From a virus: a stretch of 64,000 bases of DNA. Below, in pieces: positions 3,589 through 39,800 of this stretch. The DNA is taken from IMG/VR virus record IMGVR_UViG_3300013101_001415; one strand, written 5' to 3'. Under the pieces are notes generated by a model that made no database searches, had not been told where the DNA came from, and saw only the letters and a list, made by a program, of their open reading frames with translations. Both the position numbers and the translations under genes were made by a program. The stretch's first letter is position 1, and every line of letters starts with the position of its first letter.

Positions 3589-4341
3589 GTGAAAATGGAA
3601 ACAATAGATGAAAATATATCTATAGATAAAACTATATTAGATCAAAAGTATCCACTGTTGGATAAGTTTAAAGAGATATGTCCTGGTACTTTTAAACATT
3701 CACAAAATGTTGCAAGTATGTGCGATACAGTTGCAATTGAATTGGGTTTAAATATAGATTTGTTAAGATGTGCAGCTCTATATCATGATTGCGGAAAAAT
3801 GAATAATCCAATGTACTTTTCTGAAAATCAAGATGAAAATAATATCCATGATGATTTGGAACCCTACATGTCTTATCAAATTATAACAAGACATGTTGGA
3901 GATAGCATATTATATTTACTTCAAATTCCTGATTTACCACCAGAAGTTATTGAAATAGTTAGTCAACATCATGGTGATACTGTATTGAAGGCGTTTTGGA
4001 ATAAAGATAAAAAAGCACCTGAAGATAAATATAGATATAAATGTTCTAAACCAATTTCATCTGAATCTTTAATTTTGATGATATGTGATTCAGTTGAAGC
4101 AACAACCAGAGCTTTGTTTAATAGTGGTGATGGAAAAGATGATTTTATACAACAAGCTATTGATAGTACTATCTTTAGATTGATGGATGATGAACAATTG
4201 GATAATATGAAAATTGGTGTTTTAAATAAAACCAAAAAAATTCTAATTAAAGAACTTGAAAGTATTTATCATAAAAGAGTTGTTTATAAAGAAGATGAAA
4301 AAGAAGATCTAACAGTTGGCGAAATTAGAACAGGAGATTAA
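3589..4341 (+). CDS. HD-domain metal-dependent phosphohydrolase
   Basis: H..SQNVA then YHDCGK (HD motif) and downstream His/Asp residues typical of the HD superfamily. Confidence 0.7.
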   Translation: MKMETIDENISIDKTILDQKYPLLDKFKEICPGTFKHSQNVASMCDTVAIELGLNIDLLRCAALYHDCGKMNNPMYFSENQDENNIHDDLEPYMSYQIITRHVGDSILYLLQIPDLPPEVIEIVSQHHGDTVLKAFWNKDKKAPEDKYRYKCSKPISSESLILMICDSVEATTRALFNSGDGKDDFIQQAIDSTIFRLMDDEQLDNMKIGVLNKTKKILIKELESIYHKRVVYKEDEKEDLTVGEIRTGD

Positions 4342-6548: not shown

Positions 6549-6821
6549 ATGGGAAATGAACACGGTAATATGCAAGGGATGAGTCAGGGAACATGTCCAG
6601 AATGTGGATTTTCACACCCTCCAGTAGCAGGTGGATGTCCAATGAAAAAGAAAAAACAAAAAAGTCCATCAGGACAAAGCATTGATTATAATATATTATT
6701 TACACCATTAAAAAAAATATTATATTCTCAGATTAAAATGAAAGATATAAAAGATGTTAATAAAATGTTTCAATCAATGATAGTTAGTTGTACTAAAATT
6801 GCTGAAGAATATAAAGAATAA
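6549..6821 (+). CDS. Zn-ribbon protein
   Basis: CPECGF..GGCP motif. Confidence 0.45.
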   Translation: MGNEHGNMQGMSQGTCPECGFSHPPVAGGCPMKKKKQKSPSGQSIDYNILFTPLKKILYSQIKMKDIKDVNKMFQSMIVSCTKIAEEYKE

Positions 6822-7057
6822 TGTTTCCATGTAGAGAATGTTTAGTAGCACCTACATGCACAGAGTTATGTAAAGAACTAAAAAATCGTTCTAGAGAATC
6901 AGTTTCTAAATTTTTAACTGAATATAAAATTTGTCCTGATTGTGGTGAAAAAAATTATTTTAATACAAATTCTTCTATGCTTTATCAATTAAAATGTAAA
7001 TATTGTAATAATATATTTAAAATGTATGGATTAAATTTTTTAGAGAGAGATAAATAA
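6821..7057 (+). CDS. PCxxCL-Cys4 mini-protein family member 2
   Basis: MFPCRECLVAPTCTELCKEL plus CPDCGE..CKYCNN ribbon. Confidence 0.5.
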   Translation: MFPCRECLVAPTCTELCKELKNRSRESVSKFLTEYKICPDCGEKNYFNTNSSMLYQLKCKYCNNIFKMYGLNFLERDK

Positions 7058-8050
7058 ATGGGGACAGTAGGTATATATAATGAAGAATTTTTAAATTATC
7101 TTGAAGTTAATTTAGGTTCAATAAAAACCAATCCTAAGAATATTATTACTAAATGCCCTTGGTGTGATTTAGGAGTAGAAACATCTAAAGACCATTTATG
7201 GATTTCAATGCATGATCCTATATTTCATTGCTTTAGAGGTGGATGTAATCAAAGCGGATTAATTAGAAAACTTACGGAAAAGATAGAAGGTAAAGATTCT
7301 TCATCTACTTATGTTAATAAAGAACAAGTTAAACACTTTAAAGTAGAAAAAGTAAAATTTGAAAAAAATGAATTTAAACCAAAAGATATTATATTACCAA
7401 AATTAAATACTGATAAGTTTTCTTTAAAATCATTATACATTAAACAAAGATTTAAATTTGAAAACATACCATTAGATTCTGTTAGTGGGTTAGTGTTTGA
7501 TATTGATGAATTAATAAGAATAAATAATATACAATTAGATGAAAAAGTTTTAAGGTTTAAAGATTATTTACAAACTAACTTTGTGGGGTTTTTAACTGAA
7601 AATCAATCTTGTGTATCCATGAGAAACATTGACAGCAAATCAGAGTTTAGATATTATAAATTAAATATTCAACCATCACAATTATTAGATTATTATAAGT
7701 TGTTTGGGTTTAAAAAAAATTCAAAACATATTATTATGGCGGAGGGAATATTTGATATTTACTCTGAACATATATATAATGTGCTAGAATTAAAGAATAA
7801 AGCTGCAGCTTATATAGCAGCCTTATCAACTTCGTACGCAGCAGCTATAAAAAGTGTTGTTTTTAATGAACAAATTTTTAGACCAATAATACATATTTTA
7901 TCTGACAGAGAAATACCTATAAAATATTACGAGAAAATTATGAAATATAATAAACATTTAATAGAATCATTACATGTATATTATAATAAAACGGGAAAAG
8001 ATTTTAATGATACACCAATTAATATAAGCTGTACTAATATTTTAAGTTAA
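7058..8050 (+). CDS. 61: DNA primase (T4 gp61/DnaG-like)
   Basis: N-terminal zinc ribbon CPWCDLG...FHCFRGGCNQSG (DnaG-type HCFGCG); TOPRIM-like EGIFD. Confidence 0.75.
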   Translation: MGTVGIYNEEFLNYLEVNLGSIKTNPKNIITKCPWCDLGVETSKDHLWISMHDPIFHCFRGGCNQSGLIRKLTEKIEGKDSSSTYVNKEQVKHFKVEKVKFEKNEFKPKDIILPKLNTDKFSLKSLYIKQRFKFENIPLDSVSGLVFDIDELIRINNIQLDEKVLRFKDYLQTNFVGFLTENQSCVSMRNIDSKSEFRYYKLNIQPSQLLDYYKLFGFKKNSKHIIMAEGIFDIYSEHIYNVLELKNKAAAYIAALSTSYAAAIKSVVFNEQIFRPIIHILSDREIPIKYYEKIMKYNKHLIESLHVYYNKTGKDFNDTPINISCTNILS

Positions 8051-11677: not shown

Positions 11678-11992
11678 ATGGATAAAAATTATATAAATAA
11701 ATATTTAACAGAGTTAATGTCAATCATTCCTAATAAAGACACTAAAGTTTCTAGTAAAAGAAAAGATATGGAAATTTTAAGAGCTGCTATTATTGCTGAA
11801 TATGATGCAATAAATTTATATGAACAGATGTCTGAAGCAGCAGTTGATAAAGATGTTAAACAAGTATTATTAAATGTAGCAAATGAAGAAAAAGAACATA
11901 TTGGCGAGTTTGAATATTTATTAGAAAAATTAGATATTGAACATGAACCGCATGAAGACAAAGGCGAAGAAGAAGTTAAAAAGGAATTATAA
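11678..11992 (+). CDS. ferritin-like four-helix-bundle protein (diiron-type ExxH motif)
   Basis: AEYDAINLYEQM and ANEEKEHIGEF motifs resemble rubrerythrin/ferritin-like metal ligands; low certainty. Confidence 0.4.
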   Translation: MDKNYINKYLTELMSIIPNKDTKVSSKRKDMEILRAAIIAEYDAINLYEQMSEAAVDKDVKQVLLNVANEEKEHIGEFEYLLEKLDIEHEPHEDKGEEEVKKEL

Positions 11993-12318
11993 TGGCTATA
12001 TGCTTACACTGTCAAAAAGAATATTATAAATGGGAAAATGATAAAGGAACTATGTTCCAAACATTCTGCTCAGAAGAGTGCGTAAAAAAACATACTATAG
12101 CACTCTTGAATCAAGATTGGCCAAGAGAACCAGCTTTAAAATATAAAGTTCCAGTTGGAGAAATAGCTTGTCCTCATTGTGGAGCTGTGCAACATGGTGT
12201 TTTAACTCCAATATGTGGTGGTTGTGATAGATCATATTGGTCAATGAAAGAGTGCGATGAAAAGAATAATCCACATTTTTATGAACAAGGAGAATCAAGT
12301 GAAACAAACAGAGATTGA
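11992..12318 (+). CDS. Zn-finger protein
   Basis: CLHCQ, CSEEC, CPHCG, CGGC pairs. Confidence 0.45.
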   Translation: MAICLHCQKEYYKWENDKGTMFQTFCSEECVKKHTIALLNQDWPREPALKYKVPVGEIACPHCGAVQHGVLTPICGGCDRSYWSMKECDEKNNPHFYEQGESSETNRD

Positions 12319-12517
12319 GAATAACTTTAAATATCATGCACCAACACCAAAACAAGTTGGAATATATGGACAATTAAGAAATAATGGAAAAGATTTAGTA
12401 GAGTATATAAATGCTGTATGCCCAGATAGTAGAGAGAAATCTATTGCTATTACTAAAATTGAAGAAGCTATTATGTGGGCTAATGCATCAATTGCAAGAG
12501 ATGATCAGTGGCTATAA
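12299..12517 (+). CDS. hypothetical protein (probable GTG start after AGGAG)
   Basis: ORF track frame 12257..12517; AACAAGGAGAATCAAGTG context supports GTG start at 12299. Confidence 0.4.
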   Translation: MKQTEIENNFKYHAPTPKQVGIYGQLRNNGKDLVEYINAVCPDSREKSIAITKIEEAIMWANASIARDDQWL

Positions 12518-13754: not shown

Positions 13755-14252
13755 ATGAAAAAAATAAGATTTGTAATACATAACCATAAAGCGAGACGTG
13801 CTGGATATCATCAAGATTTGCGATTTGAAGATCCTAATAAAAGCAATCACTGGCACTCATTTGCAGTTCCTAAAACAGTTCCTTTACATTCAGGTAAAAG
13901 AGTTTTAGCAATTAAGACTCATATTCATTCTGAAAAAGAAGCTTTGTTTAAAGGAGATATTCCTGCTGGAGAATATGGCGGTGGTAATATTGAATTATTT
14001 GACCAAGGTGTTGCTACATTAAATAAATTTACACCAGCTCATATTACTATAACTATGCAAGGAAGAAAAGTAAAAGGATTATATCATCTAATTTCACTTG
14101 GAAATGTTGATACAGGAAAATTCAAACAACAACAATATCTATTATTCAAATCCAAAGTTTCAATCACACATCCTTTAAGAATTACTAAGCCAGAAGAAAC
14201 ATTCTATCAAAAACAAATAGCAAAATTTAATAAAATTTTAAAGAAAAAATAA
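13755..14252 (+). CDS. LigD-type 3'-phosphoesterase (PE) domain protein
   Basis: RFVIHNHKARRAGYHQDLRFE, SFAVPK, GDIPAGEYGGGNIELFDQG, GRKVKGLYHLI match the LigD N-terminal phosphoesterase domain. Confidence 0.8.
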   Translation: MKKIRFVIHNHKARRAGYHQDLRFEDPNKSNHWHSFAVPKTVPLHSGKRVLAIKTHIHSEKEALFKGDIPAGEYGGGNIELFDQGVATLNKFTPAHITITMQGRKVKGLYHLISLGNVDTGKFKQQQYLLFKSKVSITHPLRITKPEETFYQKQIAKFNKILKKK

Positions 14253-14414: not shown

Positions 14415-16139
14415 ATGAAATCAGTTATATTGGAAGGTAGTTCTCTTGAAGTTGCAACAAGTAGATATCTCATGAAGGGAGAAAATTGGGATATGTGTGC
14501 AAATCGAGTAGCAGATACAATGGCAGCATCAGAAACAAATAGAGTTAAATATAGAGAAGAATTCCATGAGATGATTGGTACTATGGATTTTTTACCTGGA
14601 GGTCGTATATTAAGAAATTCTGGTAGAACAAGAGGATCATTGTTTAATTGTTATCATTTACCAATTAATGATAATATAGAAGATATAGGTCAATTCTTAA
14701 AAGAGAGTTTAATACTATGGTCAGAGGGTGGAGGGGTAGGAGCAAATTTTTCCAAACTTAGACCAAAGGGAGATGTAATATTAGGTAAAGGTGGAACATC
14801 ATCTGGATTAGTTTCGTTTGTAGAAGCTGCTGATGCTGTTGCTGCAACTATTGAAAGTGGCGGCGCCAGACGAGCAGCTGGTTTAGTTCATGTTGATGTA
14901 AATCATCCAGAAGTTATGGATTTTATTGATGCAAAATTAGTTCATGGTAAAATATCACATTTTAATATATCCGTAGCAATTAATGATGAATTCATACAAG
15001 CAGTTGAAACTGATTCAGACTGGACATTTAAATTTAATCAAAAAGAATATGGTACAATAAAAGCAAAATCAATATGGGATAAGATAGTTGATAATATGAT
15101 TAAGTCTGCAGAACCAGGTTTAATTAATTGGACTAACTTTCAAAAAAATAATTCATGGTATTATGATCCAGTTTTAGGCACGAACCCTTGTGGGGAAACT
15201 TGTCTATCAGCTCGTGATGTATGTGATCTTGGATCTTTAGTATTACCAAATTTTATTACAGGTAATATTAATACAAATTGGAAAAAATTAGAAAAAACTA
15301 TTTTTCTAGCTGTTAGGTTTCTTGATGATGTAATTCAAAGTAATAAATATGTTATGAAAGAAATTGAAAATAAAGCTAATACATCAAGAAGAATTGGTAT
15401 TGGAGTATTAGGAGTAGCTGAATATTTATTTGCTAAAAAAGCAAGATATGGATCTGAAAAATCTATTCAAGAATTAGAAAGATTAATGCAATTTATTAGA
15501 AATAAATGCTATGAAGCTTCAGTTGAACTTGCAAGAGAAAAAGGATCATTTCCTGCATTTGATCCTGTCTTATATGGTAAGTCGTCTTTTATTAGAAAAT
15601 TACCAGCATCTATTAGAATGGACATTAAAAAATATGGAATAAGAAATGTAACATGTCAAGCAATAGCACCAACAGGTACAGTTAGTTTATTAACACCATA
15701 TACAGGATCTGCAGAACCATTATTTGCTAAAGCATATAAAAGAAAAGATAGAGTTAGTGAAAGAATATATGTTCACCCAATGTATGAAACTATGTTAAAA
15801 AATGAAGAAGAAATGCCTGATTGGTTTGTTGACACTTTTGATTTAAACCCACAAGATCATTTTAATATTCAAGCAGTAATACAAAGATATGTTGATAGTT
15901 CAGTATCAAAGACAATTAATTTACCAAAAGAAACTACAACAGAAGATTTAAGTCAATTATTATTAGAAAATATAACTGACTTAAAAGGGGTTACTGTATA
16001 TAGGGATGGTTGTAGAGGTGAACAACCATTAAATAAAATTACTAAAGAACAAGCTATAGAACACATTAGAAATAACATAGTTAAGAGATCACTTGAAACA
16101 GGAGATGTTCAATGTTCTAGCGGAAAGTGTGATATATGA
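14415..16139 (+). CDS. nrdJ: class II (adenosylcobalamin-dependent) ribonucleotide reductase, monomeric type
   Basis: Active-site NPCGETCL motif (class II signature); 574 aa; C-terminal Cys pair. Confidence 0.75.
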   Translation: MKSVILEGSSLEVATSRYLMKGENWDMCANRVADTMAASETNRVKYREEFHEMIGTMDFLPGGRILRNSGRTRGSLFNCYHLPINDNIEDIGQFLKESLILWSEGGGVGANFSKLRPKGDVILGKGGTSSGLVSFVEAADAVAATIESGGARRAAGLVHVDVNHPEVMDFIDAKLVHGKISHFNISVAINDEFIQAVETDSDWTFKFNQKEYGTIKAKSIWDKIVDNMIKSAEPGLINWTNFQKNNSWYYDPVLGTNPCGETCLSARDVCDLGSLVLPNFITGNINTNWKKLEKTIFLAVRFLDDVIQSNKYVMKEIENKANTSRRIGIGVLGVAEYLFAKKARYGSEKSIQELERLMQFIRNKCYEASVELAREKGSFPAFDPVLYGKSSFIRKLPASIRMDIKKYGIRNVTCQAIAPTGTVSLLTPYTGSAEPLFAKAYKRKDRVSERIYVHPMYETMLKNEEEMPDWFVDTFDLNPQDHFNIQAVIQRYVDSSVSKTINLPKETTTEDLSQLLLENITDLKGVTVYRDGCRGEQPLNKITKEQAIEHIRNNIVKRSLETGDVQCSSGKCDI

Positions 16140-17521
16140 TTTTAATATGCGGACCTTGTGTTATTGAAAATTTATCAAAATTACGAAAAGATGCAAAAGA
16201 AATAGTAGCAATTGTTAATAAGTATAACAACATTGATTTTTATTTTAAATCTTCTTGTATTAAAGATAATAGAACACGAATTCAAAACTATTCTGGTCCA
16301 GGTTTTAAATCAGGAATAAAAAGTTTAATTAAAATCAAAGAGGAATTTCATTGTAAAATAACTACTGATTTTCATACAGTTGAACAAATAGAAACATATG
16401 CAAAATATGTAGATTTGATTCAAATTCCAGCATTTTTAGCAATGCAAACTTCTCTTGCAAAAGCTGCATCTAAAACTGGAAAACCTATTCATATTAAAAA
16501 ACCACAATGGTTATCTTCTGGTGATGTTAAAAAACCTGTATCAAAAATTAAAAATTTAAATAAAGATACTAAGGTTTTTATAACAGATAGAGGAACTACA
16601 TTTGGATATGATAATGTTGTAATGGATCCTCGACATATTAGACATATGAATGAAACAAGTAATTGTGATGCTGTATTAGTTGATATTACCCACCCACAAA
16701 ATCATTCAAAAATATATAATAGAAGTTATGCTTTTGATTTAGGAATGTCATCAATTGCATCAGGAGCGAATGGTTTGTTTATTGAATCAACAATTGATCC
16801 TATGAATGCTAGTTGTGATGCAGATTCTCAAATACCTGTTAAAGATTTATTAAAATATATTAAAGGTTTTATAAATTTATATAATTATATAAATAGAACT
16901 TATACAAGCAATATTTATGAAATAAAAAAATTTATAAAATCTCTAGATGAGTGGGATGTATATAATCCTATTACTATAAATGGAGAATTATTGATAGATG
17001 GTAATAGAAGAAAGATGGAAAATCAACATATAAGAATAAATGCAATTGCAAATAATATAAAACCAAATAGTTCATATTTAGATATGGGTTGTAATTCCGG
17101 TTTTATTATTAAAGAATTAATAGAATTAAAAAATATAAAAGCAACAGGTGTTGATATAGAAGATGATATAATAAAATTATGTAAGTTAATAAATAAAATT
17201 GAGAATTTAAATATAAACTTTATTAAACAAGATATAAAAAAATTTATTATAGAGTGTAGAAAAAATAATATAAAGTTTGATAATGTATCAATGTTATCTA
17301 TTGGAGATTTTAATGAAACAGTACTTTTATTAGATTTTCTTTTAAGTATAACAAAATATAATTTATTTTTAGAACCAACAAACCATGAAGGAATGTCAAT
17401 TTCTGAATCAAAAGAAAAAATAAAAAAATTATTCCCTAAAAAATATAATATTGAAATATTAACAATTACAGATTATCAAAATAGATTTTTATTGAAAGTA
17501 CAAAATGCTAAATACAAATGA
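16136..17521 (+). CDS. kdsA: KDO-8-phosphate synthase (KdsA) fused to a C-terminal class I SAM-dependent methyltransferase domain
   Basis: ICGPCVIEN, FKSSCIKDNRTRIQNYSGPG, IQIPAFLAMQTSL, KPIHIKKPQW, DRGTTFGYDNVVMD, VDITHP, GLFIESTIDP align along E. coli KdsA; C-terminal YLDMGCNSGFII (MTase motif I), GVDIEDD. Confidence 0.8.
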   Translation: MILICGPCVIENLSKLRKDAKEIVAIVNKYNNIDFYFKSSCIKDNRTRIQNYSGPGFKSGIKSLIKIKEEFHCKITTDFHTVEQIETYAKYVDLIQIPAFLAMQTSLAKAASKTGKPIHIKKPQWLSSGDVKKPVSKIKNLNKDTKVFITDRGTTFGYDNVVMDPRHIRHMNETSNCDAVLVDITHPQNHSKIYNRSYAFDLGMSSIASGANGLFIESTIDPMNASCDADSQIPVKDLLKYIKGFINLYNYINRTYTSNIYEIKKFIKSLDEWDVYNPITINGELLIDGNRRKMENQHIRINAIANNIKPNSSYLDMGCNSGFIIKELIELKNIKATGVDIEDDIIKLCKLINKIENLNINFIKQDIKKFIIECRKNNIKFDNVSMLSIGDFNETVLLLDFLLSITKYNLFLEPTNHEGMSISESKEKIKKLFPKKYNIEILTITDYQNRFLLKVQNAKYK

Positions 17522-18416
17522 AGTAAGAATAGAAACATGTACAATATGTAATTATTTTTGTATATTTTGTCCTCATTCCACAAAATTTGTTCGTAAAAAA
17601 GAAGAAATGTCGTTAGAAAGATTTTGTTTGATTGTTGATAAAATTAAAAAGGAATTACCTAACATAACCAATATTACAATTTCTGGTTTTGGTGAAGCAT
17701 TTGTAGACTGGCAAATATTAGAAAAAATAAAATATGCAAAAGAATGTGGATTTAAAATTCATATATTATCTAATGGTTATTATTTACCTTACCCAAGAGT
17801 AGATTTTTTAAATGAGGTGGGTGTTGAAGATATAAGAATTAGTTTACATTCAGTTTTATATAAACCATATCATATAATAACTAAAGCTCCTTTATACCAA
17901 TTTAGACAAGTGTTATGGAATATTGATTATATTATCAATGAAACAAATATAAATTTAATATTAACATTTGATATTATACCTGGAATTAATGATGACCAAA
18001 TTGATTTAATTAAAGAAAAATATGATGATTATGCAACAATTGAAATGTGGAAACCTCATAATTGGGTAGATGCTTTTAAATTTAGAAAAGGTGATATAGT
18101 AAAATCAACTTGCGGAAGACCTTGGAATAGTCCATATCAAATACAAGTTGATGGCACAGTTAATATGTGTTGTTTTGATTATAATGGAAAATTGTTATTA
18201 GGGAATTTTTTAAATCATACTATGGAAGATATATTTAATGATAAACCTTTTTTAGATTTAAAAAAACATCATGAGAATAATACATTAAATCAAACTAATT
18301 ATATATGTAAAAATTGCGATCAAAGAAAAGATCAAAATGATATTGTTATTTATAACAATAAATTTAAAAGTAAGGAAAGAATAAATAGGACTTCTACTAA
18401 TTATGAAAAAATCTAA
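17505..18416 (+). CDS. radical SAM enzyme with SPASM-like C-terminal Cys cluster
   Basis: CNYFCIFC (CxxxCxxC) near N-terminus; C-terminal CGRPW, CCFD, CKNCD cysteines. Confidence 0.7.
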   Translation: MLNTNEVRIETCTICNYFCIFCPHSTKFVRKKEEMSLERFCLIVDKIKKELPNITNITISGFGEAFVDWQILEKIKYAKECGFKIHILSNGYYLPYPRVDFLNEVGVEDIRISLHSVLYKPYHIITKAPLYQFRQVLWNIDYIINETNINLILTFDIIPGINDDQIDLIKEKYDDYATIEMWKPHNWVDAFKFRKGDIVKSTCGRPWNSPYQIQVDGTVNMCCFDYNGKLLLGNFLNHTMEDIFNDKPFLDLKKHHENNTLNQTNYICKNCDQRKDQNDIVIYNNKFKSKERINRTSTNYEKI

Positions 18417-19104
18417 TCAAAAAGTTGTTATTTTACATGGTAGTTTTAATTCTGGTAAAACAATAGTTTATAATTTATTTAAAAAAGAAAATAATTATAA
18501 ATGGATAGATATATCCCCAGATCATTTAAAAGATAATAAGGACGAAATAGAATATCAAATTGGTAAAAAATGGTTAAATAAAATAACACCTGATATTGAA
18601 TCATTAGAGATATTTAAAGGTAATTATTTTTTAAATTTGTTTAATTTGTTATTAAAAGAATTTCCTAATTATAATTTTGTTGTAAAACCAGGTGGGTTTG
18701 ACTGGGTTTTAAATAATAAGTTACCACCTAATATATTTTATAATATTTTTATTATTAGACATCCTAAAATTTGCTGGATGGTAAACACCACACATTTTTC
18801 AATAGATGAATTTATTAAAATGTATAAAAAAATATTAATTGGGGTATTTAAAGAAAAAAGTAATGTTATTAAAATTGAAGAGATTGGTAAAAATAAATTA
18901 ATGAACCAATTAATTAAACGAACTGATTTAAAACAAATTAAACCAATTACAAAATTTGATGAATTTTTATTAAAAAAAATTAATTTAGAAACAATTAATG
19001 ATGAATTAGAACAAATTGATGATAAATTAAAAGACTTAATAAAATATTTAGAGTATGATTTAGATACTATAGATATAAATTTAATATTAAAAAGGAATAC
19101 TTAA
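18403..19104 (+). CDS. P-loop kinase-like protein
   Basis: Walker A ILHGSFNSGKT at N-terminus. Confidence 0.5.
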   Translation: MKKSNQKVVILHGSFNSGKTIVYNLFKKENNYKWIDISPDHLKDNKDEIEYQIGKKWLNKITPDIESLEIFKGNYFLNLFNLLLKEFPNYNFVVKPGGFDWVLNNKLPPNIFYNIFIIRHPKICWMVNTTHFSIDEFIKMYKKILIGVFKEKSNVIKIEEIGKNKLMNQLIKRTDLKQIKPITKFDEFLLKKINLETINDELEQIDDKLKDLIKYLEYDLDTIDINLILKRNT

Positions 19105-19700
19105 TGAATTATTTTATTGACACAGCTGATCAGGATGAAATTGAAAAATGGAAAAATTTTGTTGATGGAGCAACTAGCAACCCATCATTATTAAATAAAT
19201 CTAAAACTAATGCAGATGAATTTTTTATTAAAAATAAACATAATTTTAATAAAATATTTATTCAAGTTAGATCTTTAAAAGAATTATATCACTATAACAC
19301 AAGCGATAAAATTATATTCAAAGTTCCATTGTTAATAACAAAAGATTTTAATGGATTTGATTTAATTAAAAAAATAAAAAATATGGGTTATAAAACTTGT
19401 GCAACTATTACTTATGATCTCTTCCAATTTGATTATGCTTGTGAAGTTGATAGTGACTATAGTATTGTTTTATGTGCTAAAAATAAAAATAAAGATTTTC
19501 TTATAGAATGTGTAAATCTAAAAGAAGAAAGAAAATATAATACTAAAATTATAGCAGCAAGTTTTAGATCTATAGTTGATATTAGAGATGCTGTAGAATT
19601 TGGTGCTGATTATGCTACTGTTCCTCCAAAATATATGGAAGGGTTGTTTTTTAATCAAGATGCAATTAATGATTTTAATGATTTTTATGGAATAAAATAA
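19104..19700 (+). CDS. fructose-6-phosphate aldolase / transaldolase-family (TalC/FSA-like) enzyme
   Basis: FIDTAD...GATSNPSLL N-terminal motif and Schiff-base Lys context IIFKVP. Confidence 0.65.
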   Translation: MNYFIDTADQDEIEKWKNFVDGATSNPSLLNKSKTNADEFFIKNKHNFNKIFIQVRSLKELYHYNTSDKIIFKVPLLITKDFNGFDLIKKIKNMGYKTCATITYDLFQFDYACEVDSDYSIVLCAKNKNKDFLIECVNLKEERKYNTKIIAASFRSIVDIRDAVEFGADYATVPPKYMEGLFFNQDAINDFNDFYGIK

Positions 19701-20446
19701 TGAGAACTGTAGCAGTTATTTCTGCAAGATTAAAGTCAACTAGATTCCCAAATAAAATTATCCACAAACTTAATGGAAAGAGAATAATAGAACATGTTAT
19801 TAATAACACATCTAAGTTAAATTTTATTGATGATATAATTATAGCAACAGACGATGAAGATTTTGGTATAAAAATAACAGATGAATTTGACCAGGTTAAA
19901 GGTTATTTTATAAGCGATGCATGTTGTGGGACTCATAGGACATATCAATATTTTAAATCAATAAATAAATATAAATATAAGTATTATGTTTCTATACCAT
20001 GTGATGAACCATTAATAAACCCAGAAGAGATAAATAAAACATTCTCAAATATAGATGAATTATTTAATAATGAAATTGTAACTTTCTATACAAAATTTTT
20101 TTGTATGGAGGATTTAACAAGTCCATTGTCTTGTAAAATAGTTACGTCAAATGAAAATTATATGGTTTATAATTCAAGAGCAGTAGTTCCTATTCTAAAG
20201 AATGGATCTTATTTACCTTTAGATGATTATAAAAAACATTTAGGAATTTTTATATTTCCTAGAAATGTATTTGAAGAACACGGTGAAAATTTATGGTGGG
20301 GTACAACAGATATTGAATCATTAGAGCAAAATAGATTCCTCCAAAGAAAAGTACTTATTAAATTATATGAAACTAAACATATAGGTTTTGGTATTGATGT
20401 TTATTCTCAAATAAAAAAAATGGAGGAAAGAATGAATTGTGTTTAA
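19700..20446 (+). CDS. kdsB: CMP-3-deoxy-ulosonate cytidylyltransferase (KdsB/NeuA family)
   Basis: VISARLKSTRFPNKI..LNGKRIIEHV, IIIATDDED, CGTHRT, IPCDEPLI, KHLGIFIFPR align with KdsB. Confidence 0.75.
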   Translation: MRTVAVISARLKSTRFPNKIIHKLNGKRIIEHVINNTSKLNFIDDIIIATDDEDFGIKITDEFDQVKGYFISDACCGTHRTYQYFKSINKYKYKYYVSIPCDEPLINPEEINKTFSNIDELFNNEIVTFYTKFFCMEDLTSPLSCKIVTSNENYMVYNSRAVVPILKNGSYLPLDDYKKHLGIFIFPRNVFEEHGENLWWGTTDIESLEQNRFLQRKVLIKLYETKHIGFGIDVYSQIKKMEERMNCV

Positions 20447-33104: not shown

Positions 33105-35444
33105 ATGTTAAGATTATTAAATCCAAAAAGTTTTTGTAAAAATCTTAAACCAGTAACATCTATGATCACTACCACTAAATCTGGTGACTTTCATGAAGAA
33201 GGTTTGTTTAGTGAAGACATTTTTGGACCAGATGGTTCGCCAGATAGAAGAATTATATTCTCTTATTTTGAATTATATGGTTACGCTATTCATCCTGCTA
33301 TGTATAGAATATTATTACAAATAGATAGAAGAGTAGAAAAGTTTATTTCTACTGAAGAATCTTTTATTTTAGATAAAGATGGTATATTAGAGATAAACAA
33401 TAAAGGTGTTACTGGGATGAAAGAGTTTATAAAATTATTTCCTAGTATAAATTGGAGAGGTGGAACTGAATTAAGAAAAAAGCTTATTAAACTCATTAAA
33501 AAAGAAACTAAAAACAACACAATGTTTATTGATAAAATTATTGTAATTCCTCCAGATTTAAGACCTTCTATAAAAGGTGAAGATGGTAATAGGATGGATG
33601 ATCAATTAAATGATGTATATATTTCTGTTATGAGAAAGGCTTCTCAATTAAGATCTTCTGGTTCTGGTCCGTTATATGATTTATTAAATTATTCTATGCA
33701 ATTAGCAGTTATGGATCATGATAATTATATTAGATCAAAGATTGGTAAAAAGAAAGGTATTATTCGAGATCAAATGTTAGGAAAACGTATTGATTTTTCT
33801 GGTCGATCTGTTATAACACCTGATCCAAAAATAAAAATCAATGAAGTTGGATTACCACTAAGATTAGCTATTAGCTTATTTGAACCTTTTATTATGAACA
33901 GATTATTATATTCTGGTAAAGTTGATAAAGATGTTTTAGAAAAAGGTATCAAAGAATTTAATGGAATGGAACTTTCAACTGAATCTGTTAAAAGAGTAAT
34001 GAAAGGTATTAAAGAAGGAGATAAAATTCCAGAAAATCTTTATGAATTATTCTTTATACAAACAGAAGTTTCAATGATGGGTCGTGTTGTAGTAGTAAAA
34101 AGGGATCCAGTTTTACATACTCAAAGTTATTTAGCTTATTTTCCTGTCTTACATAGAGGCGATACAATGCTTATGTCTACTACTCAAGTTGGTGTTCATA
34201 ATGCAGATTTTGATGGCGATACAATGGCTGTATATCATCCATTAACAGATGAGGCTCAAGATGAAGCAAGAACAAGAATGATGAAACTAACTTCTGGAAC
34301 ATCATCTTCTGAGTTTATTTTTGGTTTATCAAAAGAAATATGGGCTGGGTTATATACTATTACAAAAGATAAAAAACCAACAGGGTCACCATTAGCAGTA
34401 TCTAATGAAGATATTGAAAATGCAACCGAACCGTATATAGCAGTTAAATATAGAGGTCAAAAAACAACAATGGGTAAAGCTATTGTTAATAGTTGCTTTC
34501 CAAAAGATATGGGTTATATGGAAGCACAAGCAACTAAAAAAACAATTAACTCAAAGATTGAACAGACTTATAATAAACATGGTGATGATATTATTAAAAT
34601 AGTTGTTGATAAATTAAAAGAAGTTGGATTTAAATGGGCTACCATCATGGCTCCATCTATGAGCTTAGATACTTTTGAATTACCAGCCTCGGTTTTAAAG
34701 ATTAAAGAAAAATTAAAAACAGCAGATCCAGAGGAAGCTCAAACTCTAATAGAGGAAGCTCAAAAAATATTAGAAAAGCATTTAGACAATACAGGATTTG
34801 GAGATCTTGCTAATTCAGGGTCTACTAAGGGATGGGGTCAACCAATGCAAATACTAGTTGCAAAAGGTGTTATCGCTGATCCTGACGGTAATGTTTTAGA
34901 TCCTATATCAGGGTCATTTGCTGATGGTTTATCTAATAGAGAATACTTTGATGCCTCTCAAGGAGCAAGAAAAGGTATTATTGATAGAGTTATTAATACA
35001 GCTGAAACAGGATATATGTCAAGAAAATTAGCTTATTTATTAAATACAGTAGAACTTGACCCTCGTATAAAAGATTGTAAAACAACAAAAACATTAAACA
35101 TAAAACTTAATGATGTTTTAATTAAAAGATTTACAGGAAGGTTTGTTATTAAAAACGGGAAATTGATGGAATTTGAAAGAGCTAAATTTAAAGTTGGTGA
35201 TATAGCTAGTATAAGAACTCCTATCTATTGTAAGTCTGAAAAAATATGTCATACTTGTTATGGTAAATTATTACAAAGACATCAAACTCCTTATATTGGA
35301 ATATTAGCTGCTCAACTTATTGGAGAAAGAGGCACGCAATTAATAATGAAAACTTTTCATACAGGTGGAGCAGTATCTTTAGTAAAACGTGATATGTTAG
35401 ATGATATTATTAATAATGATCCATTATCTGGATTGGAAAAATAA
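33105..35444 (+). CDS. multisubunit RNA polymerase beta-prime subunit, N-terminal and catalytic part (through bridge helix and trigger-loop start)
   Basis: GLFSEDIFGP (region A), VHNADFDGDTMAVYHP (universal Mg-binding motif), GARKGIIDRVINTAETGYMSRKL (bridge helix), CHTCYG...AAQLIGERGTQLIMKTFHTGG. Confidence 0.85.
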   Translation: MLRLLNPKSFCKNLKPVTSMITTTKSGDFHEEGLFSEDIFGPDGSPDRRIIFSYFELYGYAIHPAMYRILLQIDRRVEKFISTEESFILDKDGILEINNKGVTGMKEFIKLFPSINWRGGTELRKKLIKLIKKETKNNTMFIDKIIVIPPDLRPSIKGEDGNRMDDQLNDVYISVMRKASQLRSSGSGPLYDLLNYSMQLAVMDHDNYIRSKIGKKKGIIRDQMLGKRIDFSGRSVITPDPKIKINEVGLPLRLAISLFEPFIMNRLLYSGKVDKDVLEKGIKEFNGMELSTESVKRVMKGIKEGDKIPENLYELFFIQTEVSMMGRVVVVKRDPVLHTQSYLAYFPVLHRGDTMLMSTTQVGVHNADFDGDTMAVYHPLTDEAQDEARTRMMKLTSGTSSSEFIFGLSKEIWAGLYTITKDKKPTGSPLAVSNEDIENATEPYIAVKYRGQKTTMGKAIVNSCFPKDMGYMEAQATKKTINSKIEQTYNKHGDDIIKIVVDKLKEVGFKWATIMAPSMSLDTFELPASVLKIKEKLKTADPEEAQTLIEEAQKILEKHLDNTGFGDLANSGSTKGWGQPMQILVAKGVIADPDGNVLDPISGSFADGLSNREYFDASQGARKGIIDRVINTAETGYMSRKLAYLLNTVELDPRIKDCKTTKTLNIKLNDVLIKRFTGRFVIKNGKLMEFERAKFKVGDIASIRTPIYCKSEKICHTCYGKLLQRHQTPYIGILAAQLIGERGTQLIMKTFHTGGAVSLVKRDMLDDIINNDPLSGLEK

Positions 35445-36470: not shown

Positions 36471-36818
36471 ATGTATGAATATAAAGCAATGATATCAAGA
36501 GTTGTTGATGGTGATACCTTTGATGCAGAAGTTGATGTAGGATTTAGTATTACAATTAAACATAGGTTTAGATTAACAGAAATTGATACACCTGAAACAT
36601 GGAGACCAAAGACATCATCTGAAGCAGAACATGGGTTTAGATGTACTAATTTTGTTAAATCATTAATAGAATATAAAGATGTTATAATAAAATCATCAAA
36701 ACTTGGAATATATGGAAGATATGAAGCTTCATTAACTTTACCAGATGGTAATGATTTAGCAACAATATTAAAAGAAAATGGATTTGAAAAATTAGATAGC
36801 TATCCAGAGGATAAATAA
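36471..36818 (+). CDS. staphylococcal (thermo)nuclease-like nuclease
   Basis: RVVDGDTFDAEV...RFRLTEIDTPET and GRYEASLTLPDGNDLATILKENGF match SNase fold motifs. Confidence 0.7.
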   Translation: MYEYKAMISRVVDGDTFDAEVDVGFSITIKHRFRLTEIDTPETWRPKTSSEAEHGFRCTNFVKSLIEYKDVIIKSSKLGIYGRYEASLTLPDGNDLATILKENGFEKLDSYPEDK

Positions 36819-39800
36819 TGATTCAATTTAAAGCGCTTAAACCATTTACACATGTTGTTAATGGGATACGATTTCCACAAGATTCCAAGAATCCTTTCAT
36901 TATACTTTACTTTAGTGAAAATTCAACATTAGTTGATGATTATTCTAAATTAAATTTAAAAAGAGTGGATGTTAAAAAAGTTATCGTTCCTAAAACAAAA
37001 ATTCCATATAGCTTTATGTCACCAGAACTTAAAAAAACATATAAGGCGTATGGTTTGGTAGCTTCTAGTTCTACACAATCAATACCTCAAAAACAAAATC
37101 TTATGTATGACTTAACACCTTTTTTAAATATATTAGATAATGCATATAAATTAAAAAATTATAGAGCTCGTGGTGGTTTTATATTAAAAAATATAATTGA
37201 TAAAATATTTAGTTCATTTCCTAATAATTATCAAAAGATTTTTATGTATAGTACCAATGCAACTAAAGGTATGAATAAATATATTGATAGAAAAATATTT
37301 CCATTTGTTATAGAATTAAAGAAAAATAAATTATACTATGATCATTTGATACTAAATACCATTGGGGATAATTCATCTAGATATCGACTATTAATGAAAG
37401 ATAGATCTATTAAATTCAATAGAATAAATTTATTTCTTAAAAATATTAAAATTATTGATGATGATGAAGAACTTGAAAATAAAATAAATACTGCGACCAA
37501 TACAGTAATTAAAAAAATTAAAGATGATATAACACCTTCTAACAAAAATAAATTTAAACAATCAATACAAAAGTTTTTTGAGAAAAATCCAAATACTTTA
37601 GAAAAAGCTCATAATAATGATATAACTAATAATGACGCTAAAGATATTGCAACAGCATCTGTATTATATAGAACAACTGGCGATATGGGAAAATCTCGTA
37701 AAACGACTTCAAAAATTCCAGAAAATAAAAAAACTGCTGCTCTAAAAGTTATTGATAAAAAATATGCTGATGAATTATTACAACCTAAAAAAACAGAAAC
37801 CACAGCAGAAGATTTAGTTATACAATTATCAAATGTTTCTAATGCAGTTGGTAATAAATCACCTGAACATATTTTTGAAAAAAGAAAAATAGACTTTGAA
37901 ACTAATTTAAAGAAAGATGTTGTGAATTCTTTTAAGGTTTTAGAAACAAAAAATATTCCGTTAAAGTTTAAAACTATTAATATTGTTAAAAAACCTATAA
38001 GAAGAGGGGATTTATCTCCATCAAATATTAGTACTATAAAAATTACCATGGTTGATAAATTTAAAAGAGAACATGAAATTTTATTAGATGTTCCTAATAT
38101 AGCAGATGATGGAACATTTCAAATTAATGGTAAGAAAAAATGTCTTATTAATCAATTGGTTTTATGTCCAATAACATTCCCTAAAAAATATGATAGTAAG
38201 TTTGAAAGTAGTTATTCTACATTCCATATTTGGAGTAAAAGAACAAAAAGAGAAGAATATTTAGAAGCATACATTGGATCATATAAAGTTCCTTTATTGG
38301 TTCTATTATCCTTTAGTTTTGGTTTTAAAGAGACACTGAAATTATATGATATTAGGTATAAGATAACAAACGAGAAACCTGATAAAGAGGTTAAATGGAC
38401 CGTTAAAGTTGACGATAACCAATGGATTTTATTTGAAAATATCAATACAAAATTAAAAGAAGAATTAATTCAATCATTAGTTCATTCCAACATTAGTTCA
38501 TATAATTTAAAAGCAGAGTTTTTAACTAAACAATATTTTAATGATTTGATTATTAAAATAGCGGGTCGTATTAATTCAACATTTTTAATACAATCAAATT
38601 TAGAGAATATTGTGGATCCTGTAGCTAAACAAGTTTTAATAAATAAACAATTACCATCTGAATTACATTTGATTATGAAATATATGTCATCTAAAGCAGT
38701 TGAAGGATTTGTACAAAAAAGAAATGATATATCAAATCAAAGAATAAGAAATTCAGAGATTCTTGTTCATCTAGCACAAAAGCAAATTTTAGCAGCTCAC
38801 ACAGAATATAAAGAACAAGTATTATCTGGCAATAAAAAAGCTATATTTTCTATATCTCAAACTAAAGTATTAAGCGATTTTATAAATTCAGAAATTGTAG
38901 CTGATATGGAGTATGCTAATCCAATAGAAGAAATGGCTACTAAAACAAGAGTTTCTCCTGTTGGTAAAGCAATTGGAGGTATACCTGATAAACAAGCTAT
39001 ACAAAATGAAGGTCGTAATGTTCATGATTCTATGTTTGGAAATATTGATACACTTGATACACCTGAAGGTGAAAATGTTGGTATTGTACAGCAATTAACT
39101 GTTGATGCTTTCATAACATCAGCGAGAGGTATTATTCAAACTAAAGATAAAAAAGAAGGTGAAAATTCTGGACTTTTATCTACAACAGCTGCTCAAATAC
39201 CATTTGTTGAAAATAACGATGGTAATAGGGTTATGTTTGGATGTAGTCAAATGAGACAAGCTGTACCATTAAGAAACCCAGAAATACCAATGATTCAATC
39301 AGGATATGAATCAATTTTAACAAGTGTCTTGTCTGATGATTTTATCAAAAAATCTCCTTGTAATGGAAAGATTACTAGGGTAACAAAAGATGATATTTCT
39401 ATTAAATGTAGTACTGGTGGTAATAAAGTTATATCAATAACACCAGTTCATTTAAGATCAGGATCTGGTAAGGATACATTAAGTGTATTTAAACCTACTG
39501 TAAAGGTTGGTCAAGTTGTTAAATATAAAAGTATAATAGCTGAAGGATCATGTATTACTGGTGGATCTATTGCTCTTGGAAGAAGTATGTGTGTTGCTTT
39601 AATGCCTTATAAAGGTTTTAACTTTGAGGATGGAATTGTTATATCTGAAAGAATAGTAAAAGAAGGAATTCTAAATTCATTACATGGTATAGTTGAAGAA
39701 GTTGAAATAGCAAAAGATGACAGAGTTGTATTTATAAATAAATTAGGAGCTGAGACTATAAAAGGAGAACCATTATTAAGAAAGAGTATTGGAGAGATTG

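Follow-up and report, generated by a model that had tools for sequence, protein, structure and literature searches.

The canonical CMP-Kdo pathway of bacteria and plants is composed of KdsD, KdsA, KdsC and KdsB. A variant of the sugar, Kdo8N, is made by KdnB and KdnA in Shewanella. A Kdo pathway has been predicted in the giant virus CroV (crov265-267) and in Fadolivirus (PMC9614988, section 3.1.2.4), and kdsA and kdsB are known from the cyanophage S-SCSM2R and from marine environmental viral genomes (PMC12801897, PMC5332604). Pyle et al. described a phage DNA glycosyltransferase that appears to attach a Kdo-like sugar to 5hmC (bioRxiv 10.1101/2023.12.21.572611), and the Ara5P aldolase activity of E. 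coli FsaA, which combines glycolaldehyde and GA3P to give Ara5P, is established (PMC9947464).

The DNA analyzed here is a stretch of 64 kb, referred to as the window, from a large, uncultured phage. It contains a five-gene operon that probably makes a CMP-activated, decorated Kdo-type (3-deoxy-oct-2-ulosonic) acid, a reading that draws its support from homology and gene context.

Results

The cassette that an initial annotation had placed at positions 16136-20446 consists of five consecutive ORFs (Table 1). Neighboring ORFs share 1-17 nt at each junction, with overlapping stop and start codons, and ORF1 begins 4 nt inside an upstream RNR gene, overlapping its stop codon. There are no intergenic gaps and no terminator-like sites within the block, and the five genes form a single operon in a setting of nucleotide-metabolism genes (RNR and UvsX).

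Table 1. Positions of the cassette genes and domains in the window
Feature	Position	Strand	Extent	Remarks
KdsA-like domain (ORF1)	16136..16903	+	aa 1-256 of 461-aa ORF 16136-17521	metal-dependent KDO8P-synthase-type PEP aldolase
Class I SAM-dependent methyltransferase domain, C-terminal, fused to KdsA (ORF1)	16991..17521	+	aa ~286-461	
Radical SAM enzyme, C-terminal twitch/SPASM auxiliary-cluster domain (ORF2)	17505..18416	+	303 aa	uncharacterized family
P-loop protein, sulfotransferase/small-molecule-kinase fold (ORF3)	18403..19104	+	233 aa	rare family, here almost exclusively in phage-like contigs
TalC/FSA-family class I aldolase, divergent (ORF4)	19104..19700	+	198 aa	proposed arabinose-5-phosphate source
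KdsB-like CMP-ulosonate synthetase (cytidylyltransferase) (ORF5)	19700..20446	+	248 aa	

The N-terminal part of ORF1 matched DAHP_synth_1 in Pfam (PF00793; 1.2e-44, aa 1-239), and its reported homology to KdsA rather than to DAHP synthase was upheld: NCBIfam models for KDO8P synthase (KDO8P_synth) scored 3.8e-67 versus 5.4e-18 for DAHP synthase, and the best 40 PDB matches were all KDO8PS, with A. aeolicus 1fwn at the top (4e-49). The domain retains the metal ligands Cys8, His, Glu and Asp together with a KDNRT motif; the characteristic KDO8PS motif, K-x-N-R-[ST], is retained in phage KdsA, as are two of the three ligands of the arabinose-5-phosphate (A5P) phosphate. Arg106 (A. aeolicus numbering), which binds the A5P phosphate, is replaced by Met in the window protein and by Met or Lys across the phage clade, and the substrate-binding β7α7 (L7) loop is 6 residues shorter in 6/6 phage KdsA homologues. 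Because of these two changes the exact sugar made by the phage KdsA clade is uncertain, as is its carbon number, and it may not be plain Kdo. Where the initial annotation had allowed an 8- or 9-carbon product, eight carbons are expected, but nine are not expected from a KdsA-family synthase.

Overlooked in the initial annotation was a second domain of ORF1. The C-terminus matched Methyltransf_31 (1.6e-7) and Methyltransf_25 at aa 309-383, as well as MetW, and carries the conserved motifs LDxGCNxG, EPTNH and TDYQ[ND]R; ORF1 as a whole is a KdsA::class I methyltransferase fusion. The methyltransferase is a standalone gene in two other contigs, lying between KdsA and the radical SAM gene in L010 and downstream of the radical SAM-P-loop pair in L002, and its homologues adjoin the radical SAM gene in L026, L043 and L053.

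ORF2 is the radical SAM/SPASM enzyme that it had been taken for (Pfam Radical_SAM, 1.1e-14; SPASM, 6e-10). Its auxiliary domain has four conserved cysteines, equivalent to one cluster as in BtrN, whereas SPASM peptide maturases have two. BtrN was the best PDB sequence match and also a close structural match, and among the structural neighbors are a decarboxylase and dehydrogenases as well as peptide maturases. The radical SAM gene has no conserved gene for a small precursor peptide beside it. Distant homologues either have GT1, GT2 and an MptE/CST-I sialyltransferase-like protein in their context, beside the capsid gene, or adjoin an epimerase, an FkbM methyltransferase, a sulfotransferase-like protein, and DegT or class I/II aminotransferases. 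The aminotransferases near radical SAM relatives (L016, L028, L012, L024 and L074) are compatible with a logic of oxidation followed by transamination.

ORF3 was described initially as a P-loop kinase, and it does possess a Walker A motif of the canonical kinase type (GSFNSGKT). The kinase label is nevertheless insecure, as the fold of the family resembles that of sulfotransferases no less than that of kinases, and the protein may be sulfotransferase-like. A Pfam profile search assigned ORF3 to no family, and its structure model is of moderate confidence only (pLDDT 75.8).

The FSA/transaldolase-family assignment of ORF4 was confirmed (TAL_FSA, PF00923, 6.4e-16; PHROG 440, 'transaldolase', 2.4e-19) and can be refined to a divergent FSA-like enzyme. 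ORF4 retains Asp6, TSNP and the Schiff-base Lys (FKVP), and it has Gln where transaldolase has Glu, as FSA does. The Phe/Tyr131 position is occupied by Leu; both the Glu/Phe pair of transaldolase and the Tyr of FSA are lacking. Homologues of KdsD and KdsC are absent from the window and from every phage locus, and the aldolase gene is kept in the cassettes of L001, L008, L010, L015, L016 and L041. In a Pirellulales contig (L082), a Tal-domain::KdsD-CBS fusion is located between KdsC and the radical SAM gene; a transaldolase-family domain, joined to the CBS pair characteristic of KdsD, there replaces the isomerase domain of KdsD. Given this substitution, the phage aldolase probably supplies A5P in place of KdsD.

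ORF5 behaved as the KdsB-type cytidylyltransferase proposed initially and not as an unrelated nucleotidyltransferase. It matched CTP_transf_3 (PF02348; 2.2e-28), KdsB subfamily models in NCBIfam far outscored PseF (1.9e-42 versus 3.5e-8), and all 13 PDB matches were KdsB (best, 3tqd, 3.5e-20). The KdsA and KdsB scores both fall under the NCBIfam equivalog/curated cut-offs.

The gene set recurs, in varying order, in at least seven other viral contigs. KdsA-rSAM-(P-loop)-TalC-KdsB is found in the related 271-kb phage L008 and in L015, and also in a second lineage (L001 and L010) with very different flanks; QueC-MazG-dCMP deaminase flanks the genes in L001, L010 and L002. A contig whose radical SAM protein is 43% identical (L016) has KdsA, KdsB, rSAM and TalC in altered order, and L041 has rSAM-TalC-KdsB::P-loop. 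Rosetta-stone fusions are of two types: KdsA is fused to the methyltransferase in the window, and L041 and L068 carry KdsB::P-loop. L002 carries the radical SAM, P-loop and methyltransferase genes without KdsA, TalC and KdsB, and therefore the tailoring module can exist apart from the Kdo genes. Among cellular genomes, the radical SAM family adjoins kdsB-kdsA-kdsD-kdsC in Methanolobus vulcani and others, and in contigs of Omnitrophota, Thermoplasmatota, Spirochaetales and Pirellulales it has KdsA and/or KdsB in its vicinity (6-7 of 48 loci, versus about 0.3 expected by chance on a rough estimate). Since several other phage contigs share the gene set and cellular genomes share part of it, the arrangement is not due to chance. 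Synteny that persists between lineages despite changes in gene order, together with the two gene fusions, supports a tie between the accessory genes and KdsA/KdsB.

Discussion

What does the phage operon make? The family assignments, synteny and fusions support the initial proposal of a virus-encoded cassette for a CMP-activated, tailored 3-deoxy-ulosonic acid. In the pathway that we favor, the FSA-like class I aldolase would provide an aldose phosphate, most likely A5P, in place of the missing KdsD, and the metal-dependent KdsA domain would join it to PEP. As no KdsC is encoded, a host phosphatase would remove the phosphate. The sugar may then be decorated, in an order that is conjectural, by O-methylation through the methyltransferase fused to KdsA; by abstraction of a sugar hydrogen atom by the BtrN/anSME/BlsE-like twitch radical SAM enzyme, most simply converting a hydroxyl to a carbonyl; and by the P-loop protein, which would add a sulfate group (from PAPS) or a phosphate group (from ATP). 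The KdsB-like enzyme would use CTP to give the CMP-activated product. In agreement with the initial annotation, no glycosyltransferase or other transferase for the activated sugar was found within the window, and a transferase from the host or from elsewhere in the phage genome would use the activated sugar, with virion proteins, a host surface glycan or DNA as possible acceptors.

An alternative, which we regard as rather unlikely, is that the same pathway leads to a product other than Kdo, with KdsA accepting another aldose from the aldolase (non-phosphorylated, shorter or pre-modified) and KdsB activating the resulting 3-deoxy-2-ulosonic acid. The altered phosphate site and loop of KdsA, the scores below the equivalog cut-offs, the lack of KdsC in every phage cassette and the atypical aldolase active site would all fit such a product, but the conserved KDO8PS motif and two phosphate ligands, the exclusively KdsB-type structures matched by ORF5, and the pairing of the same radical SAM family with canonical KdsD and KdsC in cellular relatives argue against it. 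Whether phage DNA is the acceptor, the CMP-sugar being used by a DNA glycosyltransferase to hypermodify hydroxymethylated pyrimidines, is a separate matter. The enzyme of Pyle et al., which apparently adds a Kdo-like sugar acid to 5hmC, offers a precedent, and both lineages have nucleotide-metabolism neighbors; yet searches of the window found neither a cytosine methyltransferase/TET nor a dCMP or dUMP hydroxymethylase nor a DNA glycosyltransferase, and the capsid, sialyltransferase-like, GT1 and GT2 genes beside distant radical SAM homologues point to glycosylation of protein or polysaccharide. We consider a DNA acceptor unlikely.

There is little probability that KdsA, KdsB and TalC are ordinary AMGs that boost host LPS-Kdo and pentose-phosphate flux, with the radical SAM, P-loop and methyltransferase genes as unrelated neighbors. 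Although there are reports of phage AMGs for each of kdsA, kdsB and talC (PMC12801897, PMC5332604), ORF4 falls in a 'transaldolase' PHROG, and S-SCSM2R carries kdsA and kdsB without the radical SAM gene of the cassette, all close relatives have the accessory genes interspersed among KdsA, TalC and KdsB, and the link outlasts reshuffling of gene order and extends to fusions. Moreover, an archaeon, which lacks LPS, carries the radical SAM family after kdsBADC, and the phage KdsA and TalC proteins are divergent clades rather than recent host copies. Least probable is a separate peptide or cofactor maturation system, formed by the radical SAM, P-loop and methyltransferase proteins and merely co-located with the sugar genes. 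The missing precursor peptide, the single BtrN-like auxiliary cluster and the fusion of the P-loop domain to KdsB speak against it, and in phages, bacteria and archaea alike the radical SAM family has sugar-nucleotide and glycosyltransferase genes as its neighbors.

Kdo genes encoded by viruses had been published before (PMC9614988), and the novelty of the locus is therefore lower than the initial annotation implied. The enzymes linked here to Kdo genes, by contrast, have not been described; they are an uncharacterized radical SAM protein, a protein resembling sulfotransferases or kinases, and an aldolase that apparently takes over from the usual isomerase.

Compared with the canonical CMP-Kdo pathway, the phage locus likewise has adjacent KdsA and KdsB homologues in one operon, and its KdsA keeps the metal ligands and signature motif. 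It differs in using a TalC/FSA-like aldolase instead of KdsD and KdsC, in its added methyltransferase, radical SAM and P-loop proteins, in a KdsA without Arg106 and with a shorter β7α7 loop, and in sub-cut-off KdsA and KdsB scores. ORF4 is in the same Pfam family as E. coli FsaA and cyanophage TalC, is similarly short and shares the Schiff-base Lys, Asp6 and Asn; relative to FsaA, however, Tyr131 is Leu and Arg134 is Lys with a 5-residue deletion, and ORF4 is distant from solved structures (E values of 6e-4 to 4e-9), its activity being predicted only. The phage of Pyle et al. also puts an activated ulosonic acid to a phage-specific purpose, but it takes the host CMP-Kdo pool and requires a methyltransferase/TET pair and a DNA glycosyltransferase, none of which was found in the window.

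S-SCSM2R and the marine viral genomes resemble this locus as tailed phages with KdsA and KdsB (32% identity to the window KdsA), whereas the S-SCSM2R cluster includes 2OG-Fe(II) oxygenases and glycosyltransferases and has no radical SAM enzyme, P-loop protein, fused methyltransferase or aldolase. CroV, which has a eukaryotic host, encodes an isomerase and a phosphatase (crov265) and has no radical SAM enzyme, P-loop protein or aldolase, but its pathway is likewise virus-encoded, with a second domain fused to the cytidylyltransferase (crov266) and a C-terminal methyltransferase fused to KdoPS (crov267), the methyltransferase likeness being one of architecture (PMC9614988). For the radical SAM enzyme the nearest counterpart is BtrN of butirosin biosynthesis, a twitch enzyme that works with an aminotransferase and oxidizes a sugar-like secondary alcohol.

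Organization of the cassette and its phage

The window is part of a large tailed phage. It encodes a T4 gp13-like neck protein and a baseplate-V OB domain, as well as a UvsX-like recombinase, an N-acetylmuramoyl-L-alanine amidase, RNR, a gyrase-like topoisomerase, SbcCD and two large proteins that carry RNA polymerase domains of the Rpb1 and Rpb2 types. Essentially every gene lies on the + strand and the GC content is ~27%. The whole genome probably spans ~220-270 kb, of which the window would be about a quarter.

All five ORFs named in the initial annotation were recovered as consecutive, overlapping genes. Each cassette ORF overlaps the next by 1-17 nt, the RNR stop codon and the start of ORF1 also overlap, and the cassette is one translationally coupled unit. 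A promoter/terminator scan, which is uninformative in this AT-rich window since promoter-like sites were fewer than in shuffles, found no terminator-like sites inside the block. The GC content of the cassette region (0.22-0.24 for 16001-20000) is lower than that of its flanks (0.27-0.30), which is consistent with acquisition of the cassette as a module.

Features of the cassette and the evidence for each
Feature	Position (nt)	Strand	Evidence
ORF1, KdsA::methyltransferase	16136-17521	+	Pfam, NCBIfam and PDB matches
ORF2, radical SAM with SPASM/twitch domain	17505-18416	+	Pfam
ORF3, P-loop protein	18403-19104	+	Walker A motif
ORF4, TAL_FSA family aldolase	19104-19700	+	Pfam, PHROG 440
ORF5, KdsB-like	19700-20446	+	Pfam, NCBIfam and PDB matches

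No match to the cassette was returned by blastn against 50,697 phage records, and tblastn against the phage records gave only nine weak KdsA matches and one weak radical SAM match; thus, no cultured relative was found and no host was assigned. The transaldolase was the sole cassette protein recognized in PHROGs. Affiliation with the 'moraphage' jumbo lineage was ruled out since moraphages are without RNA polymerase genes (PMC12619734). Pfam matches at 33105-35444 and 36818-40909 to Rpb1 domains 1, 2, 3 and 5 (7.5e-28) and Rpb2 domains 3 and 6 (1.4e-49) indicate that the phage encodes its own β'/β-like RNA polymerase. The closest tblastn matches of these proteins in the phage collection are just 25-28% identical, and tblastn with the β'-like protein returned mostly bacterial-like sequences and no close phage lineage.

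Several other genes of the window deserve mention. An 849-aa protein (45372-47921) combines a Major Vault Protein shoulder domain (5.1e-19) with vault repeats, an unusual find in a phage. At 48039-50687, an AAA_5 (MoxR-like) ATPase gene and, after it, the gene for a DUF2201 VWA-like/metallopeptidase protein form a conserved two-gene pair in phages. A Tpt1/KptA RNA 2'-phosphotransferase (1229-1783; 1.7e-49) and a protein with a LigD-type 3'-phosphoesterase domain (13755-14252; 8e-18) represent RNA or nucleic-acid end-repair functions. A 72-aa ORF (12299-12517; 3897-4115 in comparison locus L005) has a Pfam match to the Acb2/Tad1 hairpin domain, an anti-CBASS/anti-Thoeris sponge fold, and its neighbors are a DUF4326 protein and an EncFtn/rubrerythrin-like protein (11678-11992).

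The KdsA and KdsB homologs

Residues 1-256 of ORF1 form a KdsA-type synthase with a match to the DAHP_synth_1 TIM-barrel family (PF00793, 1.2e-44). Assignment of ORF1 as a DAHP synthase was ruled out by the NCBIfam ranking, in which the KDO8P synthase model TIGR01362 scored 3.8e-67 versus 5.4e-18 for the DAHP synthase model TIGR01361, and by the PDB matches, the best 40 of which are all KDO8P synthases (the metal-dependent Aquifex aeolicus enzyme is at the top with 4e-49) while the first DAHP synthase appears at 6.9e-10. For ORF5, the CTP_transf_3 match (PF02348, 2.2e-28), the KdsB subfamily models (1.9e-42, versus 3.5e-8 for PseF) and the PDB matches (KdsB in 13 of 13) agree, and no search assigned it to an unrelated nucleotidyltransferase. 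The proposed KdsA and KdsB identities of the two ORFs were therefore borne out at the family level. Both proteins score below the NCBIfam equivalog cut-offs (226.2 bits versus 314 for TIGR01362 and 225.8 versus 242 for NF003543 with the KdsA domain; 145.3 versus 255 for NF009905 and 99.8 versus 155.2 for TIGR00466 with ORF5), so they are considered family members and not trusted equivalogs.

In alignment with the A. aeolicus enzyme, the metal ligands Cys11, His185, Glu222 and Asp233 are kept in the phage KdsA domain (GPC(8)VIE, DITH, FIEST and SCDAD), and its KDNRT sequence aligns with the K-A-N-R-S motif. The four metal ligands and the K-D-N-R-T/S motif are present in all six phage KdsA homologs. 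The same six homologs lack A. aeolicus Arg106, which is one of three ligands of the arabinose-5-phosphate (A5P) phosphate and is contributed by the neighboring subunit; the FLCRQTDL segment reads FLAMQTSL, with Met, or Lys in the phage locus L016, at the arginine position. The β7α7 (L7) loop, which takes part in A5P binding and is longer in KDO8P synthases than in DAHP synthases, is 6 aa shorter in all six phage homologs. PDB matches of the KdsA domain include loop-deletion variants of the Neisseria meningitidis enzyme (3stc, 3stg). Because Arg106 is replaced and the L7 loop is short, the substrate may differ from plain A5P, which we regard as improbable.

The remainder of ORF1 (residues ~286-461) is a class I SAM methyltransferase with Pfam matches to Methyltransf_31 (31.6 bits; cut-off 27), Methyltransf_25 (28.7 bits; cut-off 27) and MetW, and motif I (LDMGCNSG) is kept in homologs. 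The methyltransferase of the phage contig L010 is encoded by its own gene between kdsA and the radical SAM gene; the fusion in the window joins two neighboring genes.

A divergent aldolase, apparently in place of KdsD and KdsC

ORF4 is a short protein of the FSA/transaldolase family (PF00923, 6.4e-16; PHROG 440, 'transaldolase'), as had been proposed. The phage aldolases were aligned with Thermotoga maritima and Bacillus subtilis Tal and Escherichia coli FsaA, and they retain Asp6 (IDTA), the TSNP asparagine (Asn28), the Schiff-base lysine (FKVP) and the AASFR phosphate site. The catalytic Glu of transaldolases (E60 of Thermoplasma acidophilum Tal, E96 of TalB) is Gln in ORF4, which is the FSA state (Gln59 of FSA). 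The residue corresponding to the catalytic Tyr131 of FSA, which is Phe in transaldolases, is Leu in ORF4; a Tyr occupies this position only in L016 and lies one residue later in the phage loci L001 and L010. The phage aldolases also have Lys for Arg134 and a five-residue deletion. Taken together, these changes point to a divergent class I aldolase and not a standard transaldolase. Given the active-site residues and the fixed place of the gene in the cassette, it is unlikely that ORF4 is an ordinary transaldolase carried as an auxiliary metabolic gene.

What might such an aldolase do in a KdsA pathway? No homolog (E <= 1e-3) of the KdsD and KdsC proteins from loci L074, L063 and L082 was found among the ORFs of the window or of the phage loci L001-L040. 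In L082, from an uncultured Pirellulales MAG (CAZZAX010000081.1), the gene at 6811-7917 between kdsC and the radical SAM gene codes for a fusion protein. Its residues 4-212 are a domain of the transaldolase family (1e-47 to the T. maritima enzyme), and its residues 219-338 are a CBS pair typical of KdsD (2e-16 to the CBS domain of A5P isomerase). It looks like a natural replacement, in which the SIS isomerase domain of KdsD was swapped for a TalC/FSA-type domain. For E. coli FsaA, an A5P aldolase activity with glycolaldehyde and GA3P is established (PMC9947464). With this activity, the L082 fusion and the absence of KdsD and KdsC, the most economical reading is that the cassette aldolase would supply the aldose phosphate for KdsA.

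A radical SAM family associated with Kdo genes

Pfam, the CX3CX2C motif and the C-terminal cysteine ligands all support the earlier identification of ORF2 as a radical SAM enzyme with a C-terminal SPASM/twitch domain. The family has >228 clusters at 90% identity, is uniformly ~303 aa long and is almost unannotated. The CX3CX2C cysteines and four C-terminal cysteines are invariant, and the latter fit the pattern predicted for a single auxiliary cluster, as in BtrN, which is the best PDB sequence match (8e-7) in an alignment that spans the core and the auxiliary-cluster region. The simplest guess at the chemistry would be oxidation of a hydroxyl group, and decarboxylation or epimerization may also be possible. 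In the literature searched, nothing relevant was found that ties radical SAM enzymes to Kdo or to other ulosonic acids.

Among one-per-species cellular genomes, homologs (~40% identity) occur in Omnitrophota, anammox Planctomycetota, Nitrospirae, Thermoplasmatota and others. A strong KdsA match (E <= 1e-38) lies within 8 kb in 6 of 48 cellular loci and a strong KdsB match (E <= 1e-20) is present in 7 of 48, where roughly 0.3 loci would be expected by chance for a single-copy gene (a rough estimate). In the isolate Methanolobus vulcani PL-12/M (L074 4791-8921; NZ_FNCA01000002.1), the gene order is kdsB-kdsA-kdsD-kdsC-radical SAM with a DegT aminotransferase gene downstream, and its KdsD and KdsC match structures of arabinose-5-phosphate isomerase (1e-54) and KdsC (3e-30), respectively. 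The complete kdsBADC set together with the radical SAM gene implies a Kdo-type sugar in an archaeon.

Other homologs also keep company with glycan genes. In small phages, the radical SAM gene lies between genes for an MptE-like/CST-I sialyltransferase-like protein and a double GT2, with GT1 and methyltransferase genes upstream, in a block a few genes after the major capsid gene. Another group has a gene for a sulfotransferase-like protein on one side, an FkbM methyltransferase gene on the other and GT2 genes in the vicinity, and at further loci the neighbors are NAD-dependent epimerases and DegT aminotransferases. The loci L012/L013, L016, L047, L058 and L064 are large radical-SAM-rich glycan islands in which three to six different radical SAM genes cluster with sugar genes; in L012, three P-loop-like paralogs surround the radical SAM gene.

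The P-loop protein: sulfotransferase or kinase?

ORF3 had been described as a P-loop kinase. Its Walker A motif (GSFNSGKT) upholds the first half of that description, and the sulfotransferase-like Pfam and Foldseek matches leave the kinase identity unsecured. ORF3 itself had no match in Pfam, NCBIfam or PHROG. The family is very rare (2 clusters in a word-indexed search, 11 in a profile search and 48 representatives among 1.84 billion proteins), is absent from the 48 cellular radical SAM loci and, within the searches done, was found almost only on phage-like contigs. G18, K19 and R119 are invariant.

One possibility, to which we give about an even chance, is that the protein is sulfotransferase-like. 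Several remote members have weak Sulfotransfer_3/_1 matches (E 1e-4 to 0.03), a Foldseek search with a moderately confident model (pLDDT 75.8) returned a similar mix of sulfotransferases and kinases, and R119 sits where a strand passes into a helix, as does the 3'-PB arginine in sulfotransferases. An APS kinase is encoded in the related phage L010 and canonical sulfotransferases in L002 and L001, and neither was found in the window with Pfam and homologs from related loci. The P-loop of ORF3, though, reads as a canonical kinase Walker A and not as the sulfotransferase 5'-PSB motif (P-K/R-S-G-T/S-T), and a kinase is a serious possibility that falls short of even. Some other activity is improbable.

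Conservation of the cassette and the proposed pathway

The cassette is conserved and mobile. In L008, a closely related 271-kb phage contig, the order is RNR-KdsA-radical SAM-TalC-KdsB-P-loop-...-RecA at the same genomic position, and L015 has the same gene set. A second lineage, comprised of L001 (a 223-kb IMG/VR contig) and L010 (binned as 'Vallitaleaceae', yet clearly a phage contig), has the order KdsA-[methyltransferase]-radical SAM-P-loop-P-loop-TalC-KdsB following QueC-MazG-dCMP deaminase, and these flanks are quite different from those in the window. At the equivalent place L002 has only radical SAM-P-loop-YAcAr-methyltransferase, which indicates that the tailoring genes are a separable sub-module. 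In L016, where the radical SAM enzyme is only 43% identical, KdsA, a class I/II aminotransferase, KdsB, radical SAM and TalC genes occur in another order along with three further radical SAM genes. KdsB is fused to the P-loop protein in L041 (radical SAM-TalC-KdsB::P-loop) and L068 (radical SAM-KdsB::P-loop), and the P-loop profile is matched by the C-terminal half of each protein (514 aa, 1e-49, and 489 aa, 3e-53, respectively). Two independent Rosetta-stone fusions (KdsA::methyltransferase and KdsB::P-loop) and synteny that withstands shuffling provide strong evidence that all six cassette domains would act in one pathway.

Beyond family membership, the functional claims made here are drawn from sequence, predicted structure and gene context. 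A joint reading that we put forward tentatively, as possible and short of probable, is that the twitch radical SAM family, with members in jumbo and small phages as well as in bacteria and archaea, is dedicated to the tailoring of Kdo-type ulosonic acids, and that the phage set (this enzyme with an FSA-like 'Ara5P aldolase' bypassing KdsD, a KdsA variant, a methyltransferase and a sulfotransferase-like family) would make a previously unknown octulosonic acid that is oxidized, methylated and either sulfated or phosphorylated. This sugar would decorate the virion, the surface of the infected cell or DNA.

Candidate acceptors

The initial annotation saw no glycosyltransferase nearby, and we likewise found none with Pfam among the tested window ORFs of >=129 aa, nor any homolog in the window of the GT1, GT2 and Maf-like proteins from related loci. 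In the L001/L002/L010 lineage, a GT1-like gene is conserved ~4 kb upstream of the cassette, and further glycan genes are close by. The capsid-adjacent glycosyltransferase blocks around distant radical SAM homologs favor glycosylation of the virion, which we consider a possible acceptor. Phage LPS genes have classically been proposed to modify the host surface (PMC12801897, PMC5332604), an acceptor that is somewhat doubtful here. DNA stays a candidate given the nucleotide-metabolism neighborhood and a published Kdo-like DNA modification, and we think it unlikely; the remaining chance falls to some other acceptor. The window also has a PTPS/QueD homolog (56431-56859; 3e-31), and QueC homologs adjoin the cassette in the other lineage (L001 7625-8254; L002 7080-7832), which suggests that these phages may synthesize 7-deazaguanine, possibly for DNA modification.

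Significance and comparison with known systems

If the joint reading is correct, the cassette would represent a new branch of Kdo biochemistry with a radical SAM tailoring step, a natural aldolase route to arabinose-5-phosphate in place of KdsD, and a sulfotransferase/kinase-like family that was nearly confined to phage-like contigs in our searches. Large phages, probably from anoxic habitats, would then make their own exotic activated sugar acid and not use that of the host, with implications for virion glycosylation, superinfection exclusion and DNA hypermodification. M. vulcani, a cultivable methanogen in which the radical SAM gene follows a complete kdsBADC set, is open to experiment and hints that archaeal glycans contain Kdo-type sugars. 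Practical gains would include enzymes for modified ulosonic acids and markers for annotating viral glycan genes.

Virus-encoded Kdo synthesis has been predicted, though never validated, for CroV and Fadolivirus, including the KdoPS-methyltransferase fusion crov267 (PMC9614988), and kdsA was found in a marine environmental viral genome (PMC5332604). The cyanophage S-SCSM2R has kdsA and kdsB, reported as the first in a cyanophage (PMC12801897), with 2OG-Fe(II) oxygenase and glycosyltransferase genes as neighbors. Two 2OG-Fe(II) oxygenase genes and a glycine amidinotransferase gene are directly beside kdsA and kdsB in its genome (L090, PQ898602.1; 2983-5083) and may be an aerobic counterpart of the cassette tailoring genes. 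What is new here is a conserved phage cassette in which KdsA and KdsB are linked with an uncharacterized twitch radical SAM family, a P-loop family and a methyltransferase, and the attachment of the same radical SAM family to complete Kdo operons in bacteria and archaea. Also new are the predicted divergence of the KdsA active site and the apparent replacement of KdsD and loss of KdsC, with an FSA-like aldolase instead.
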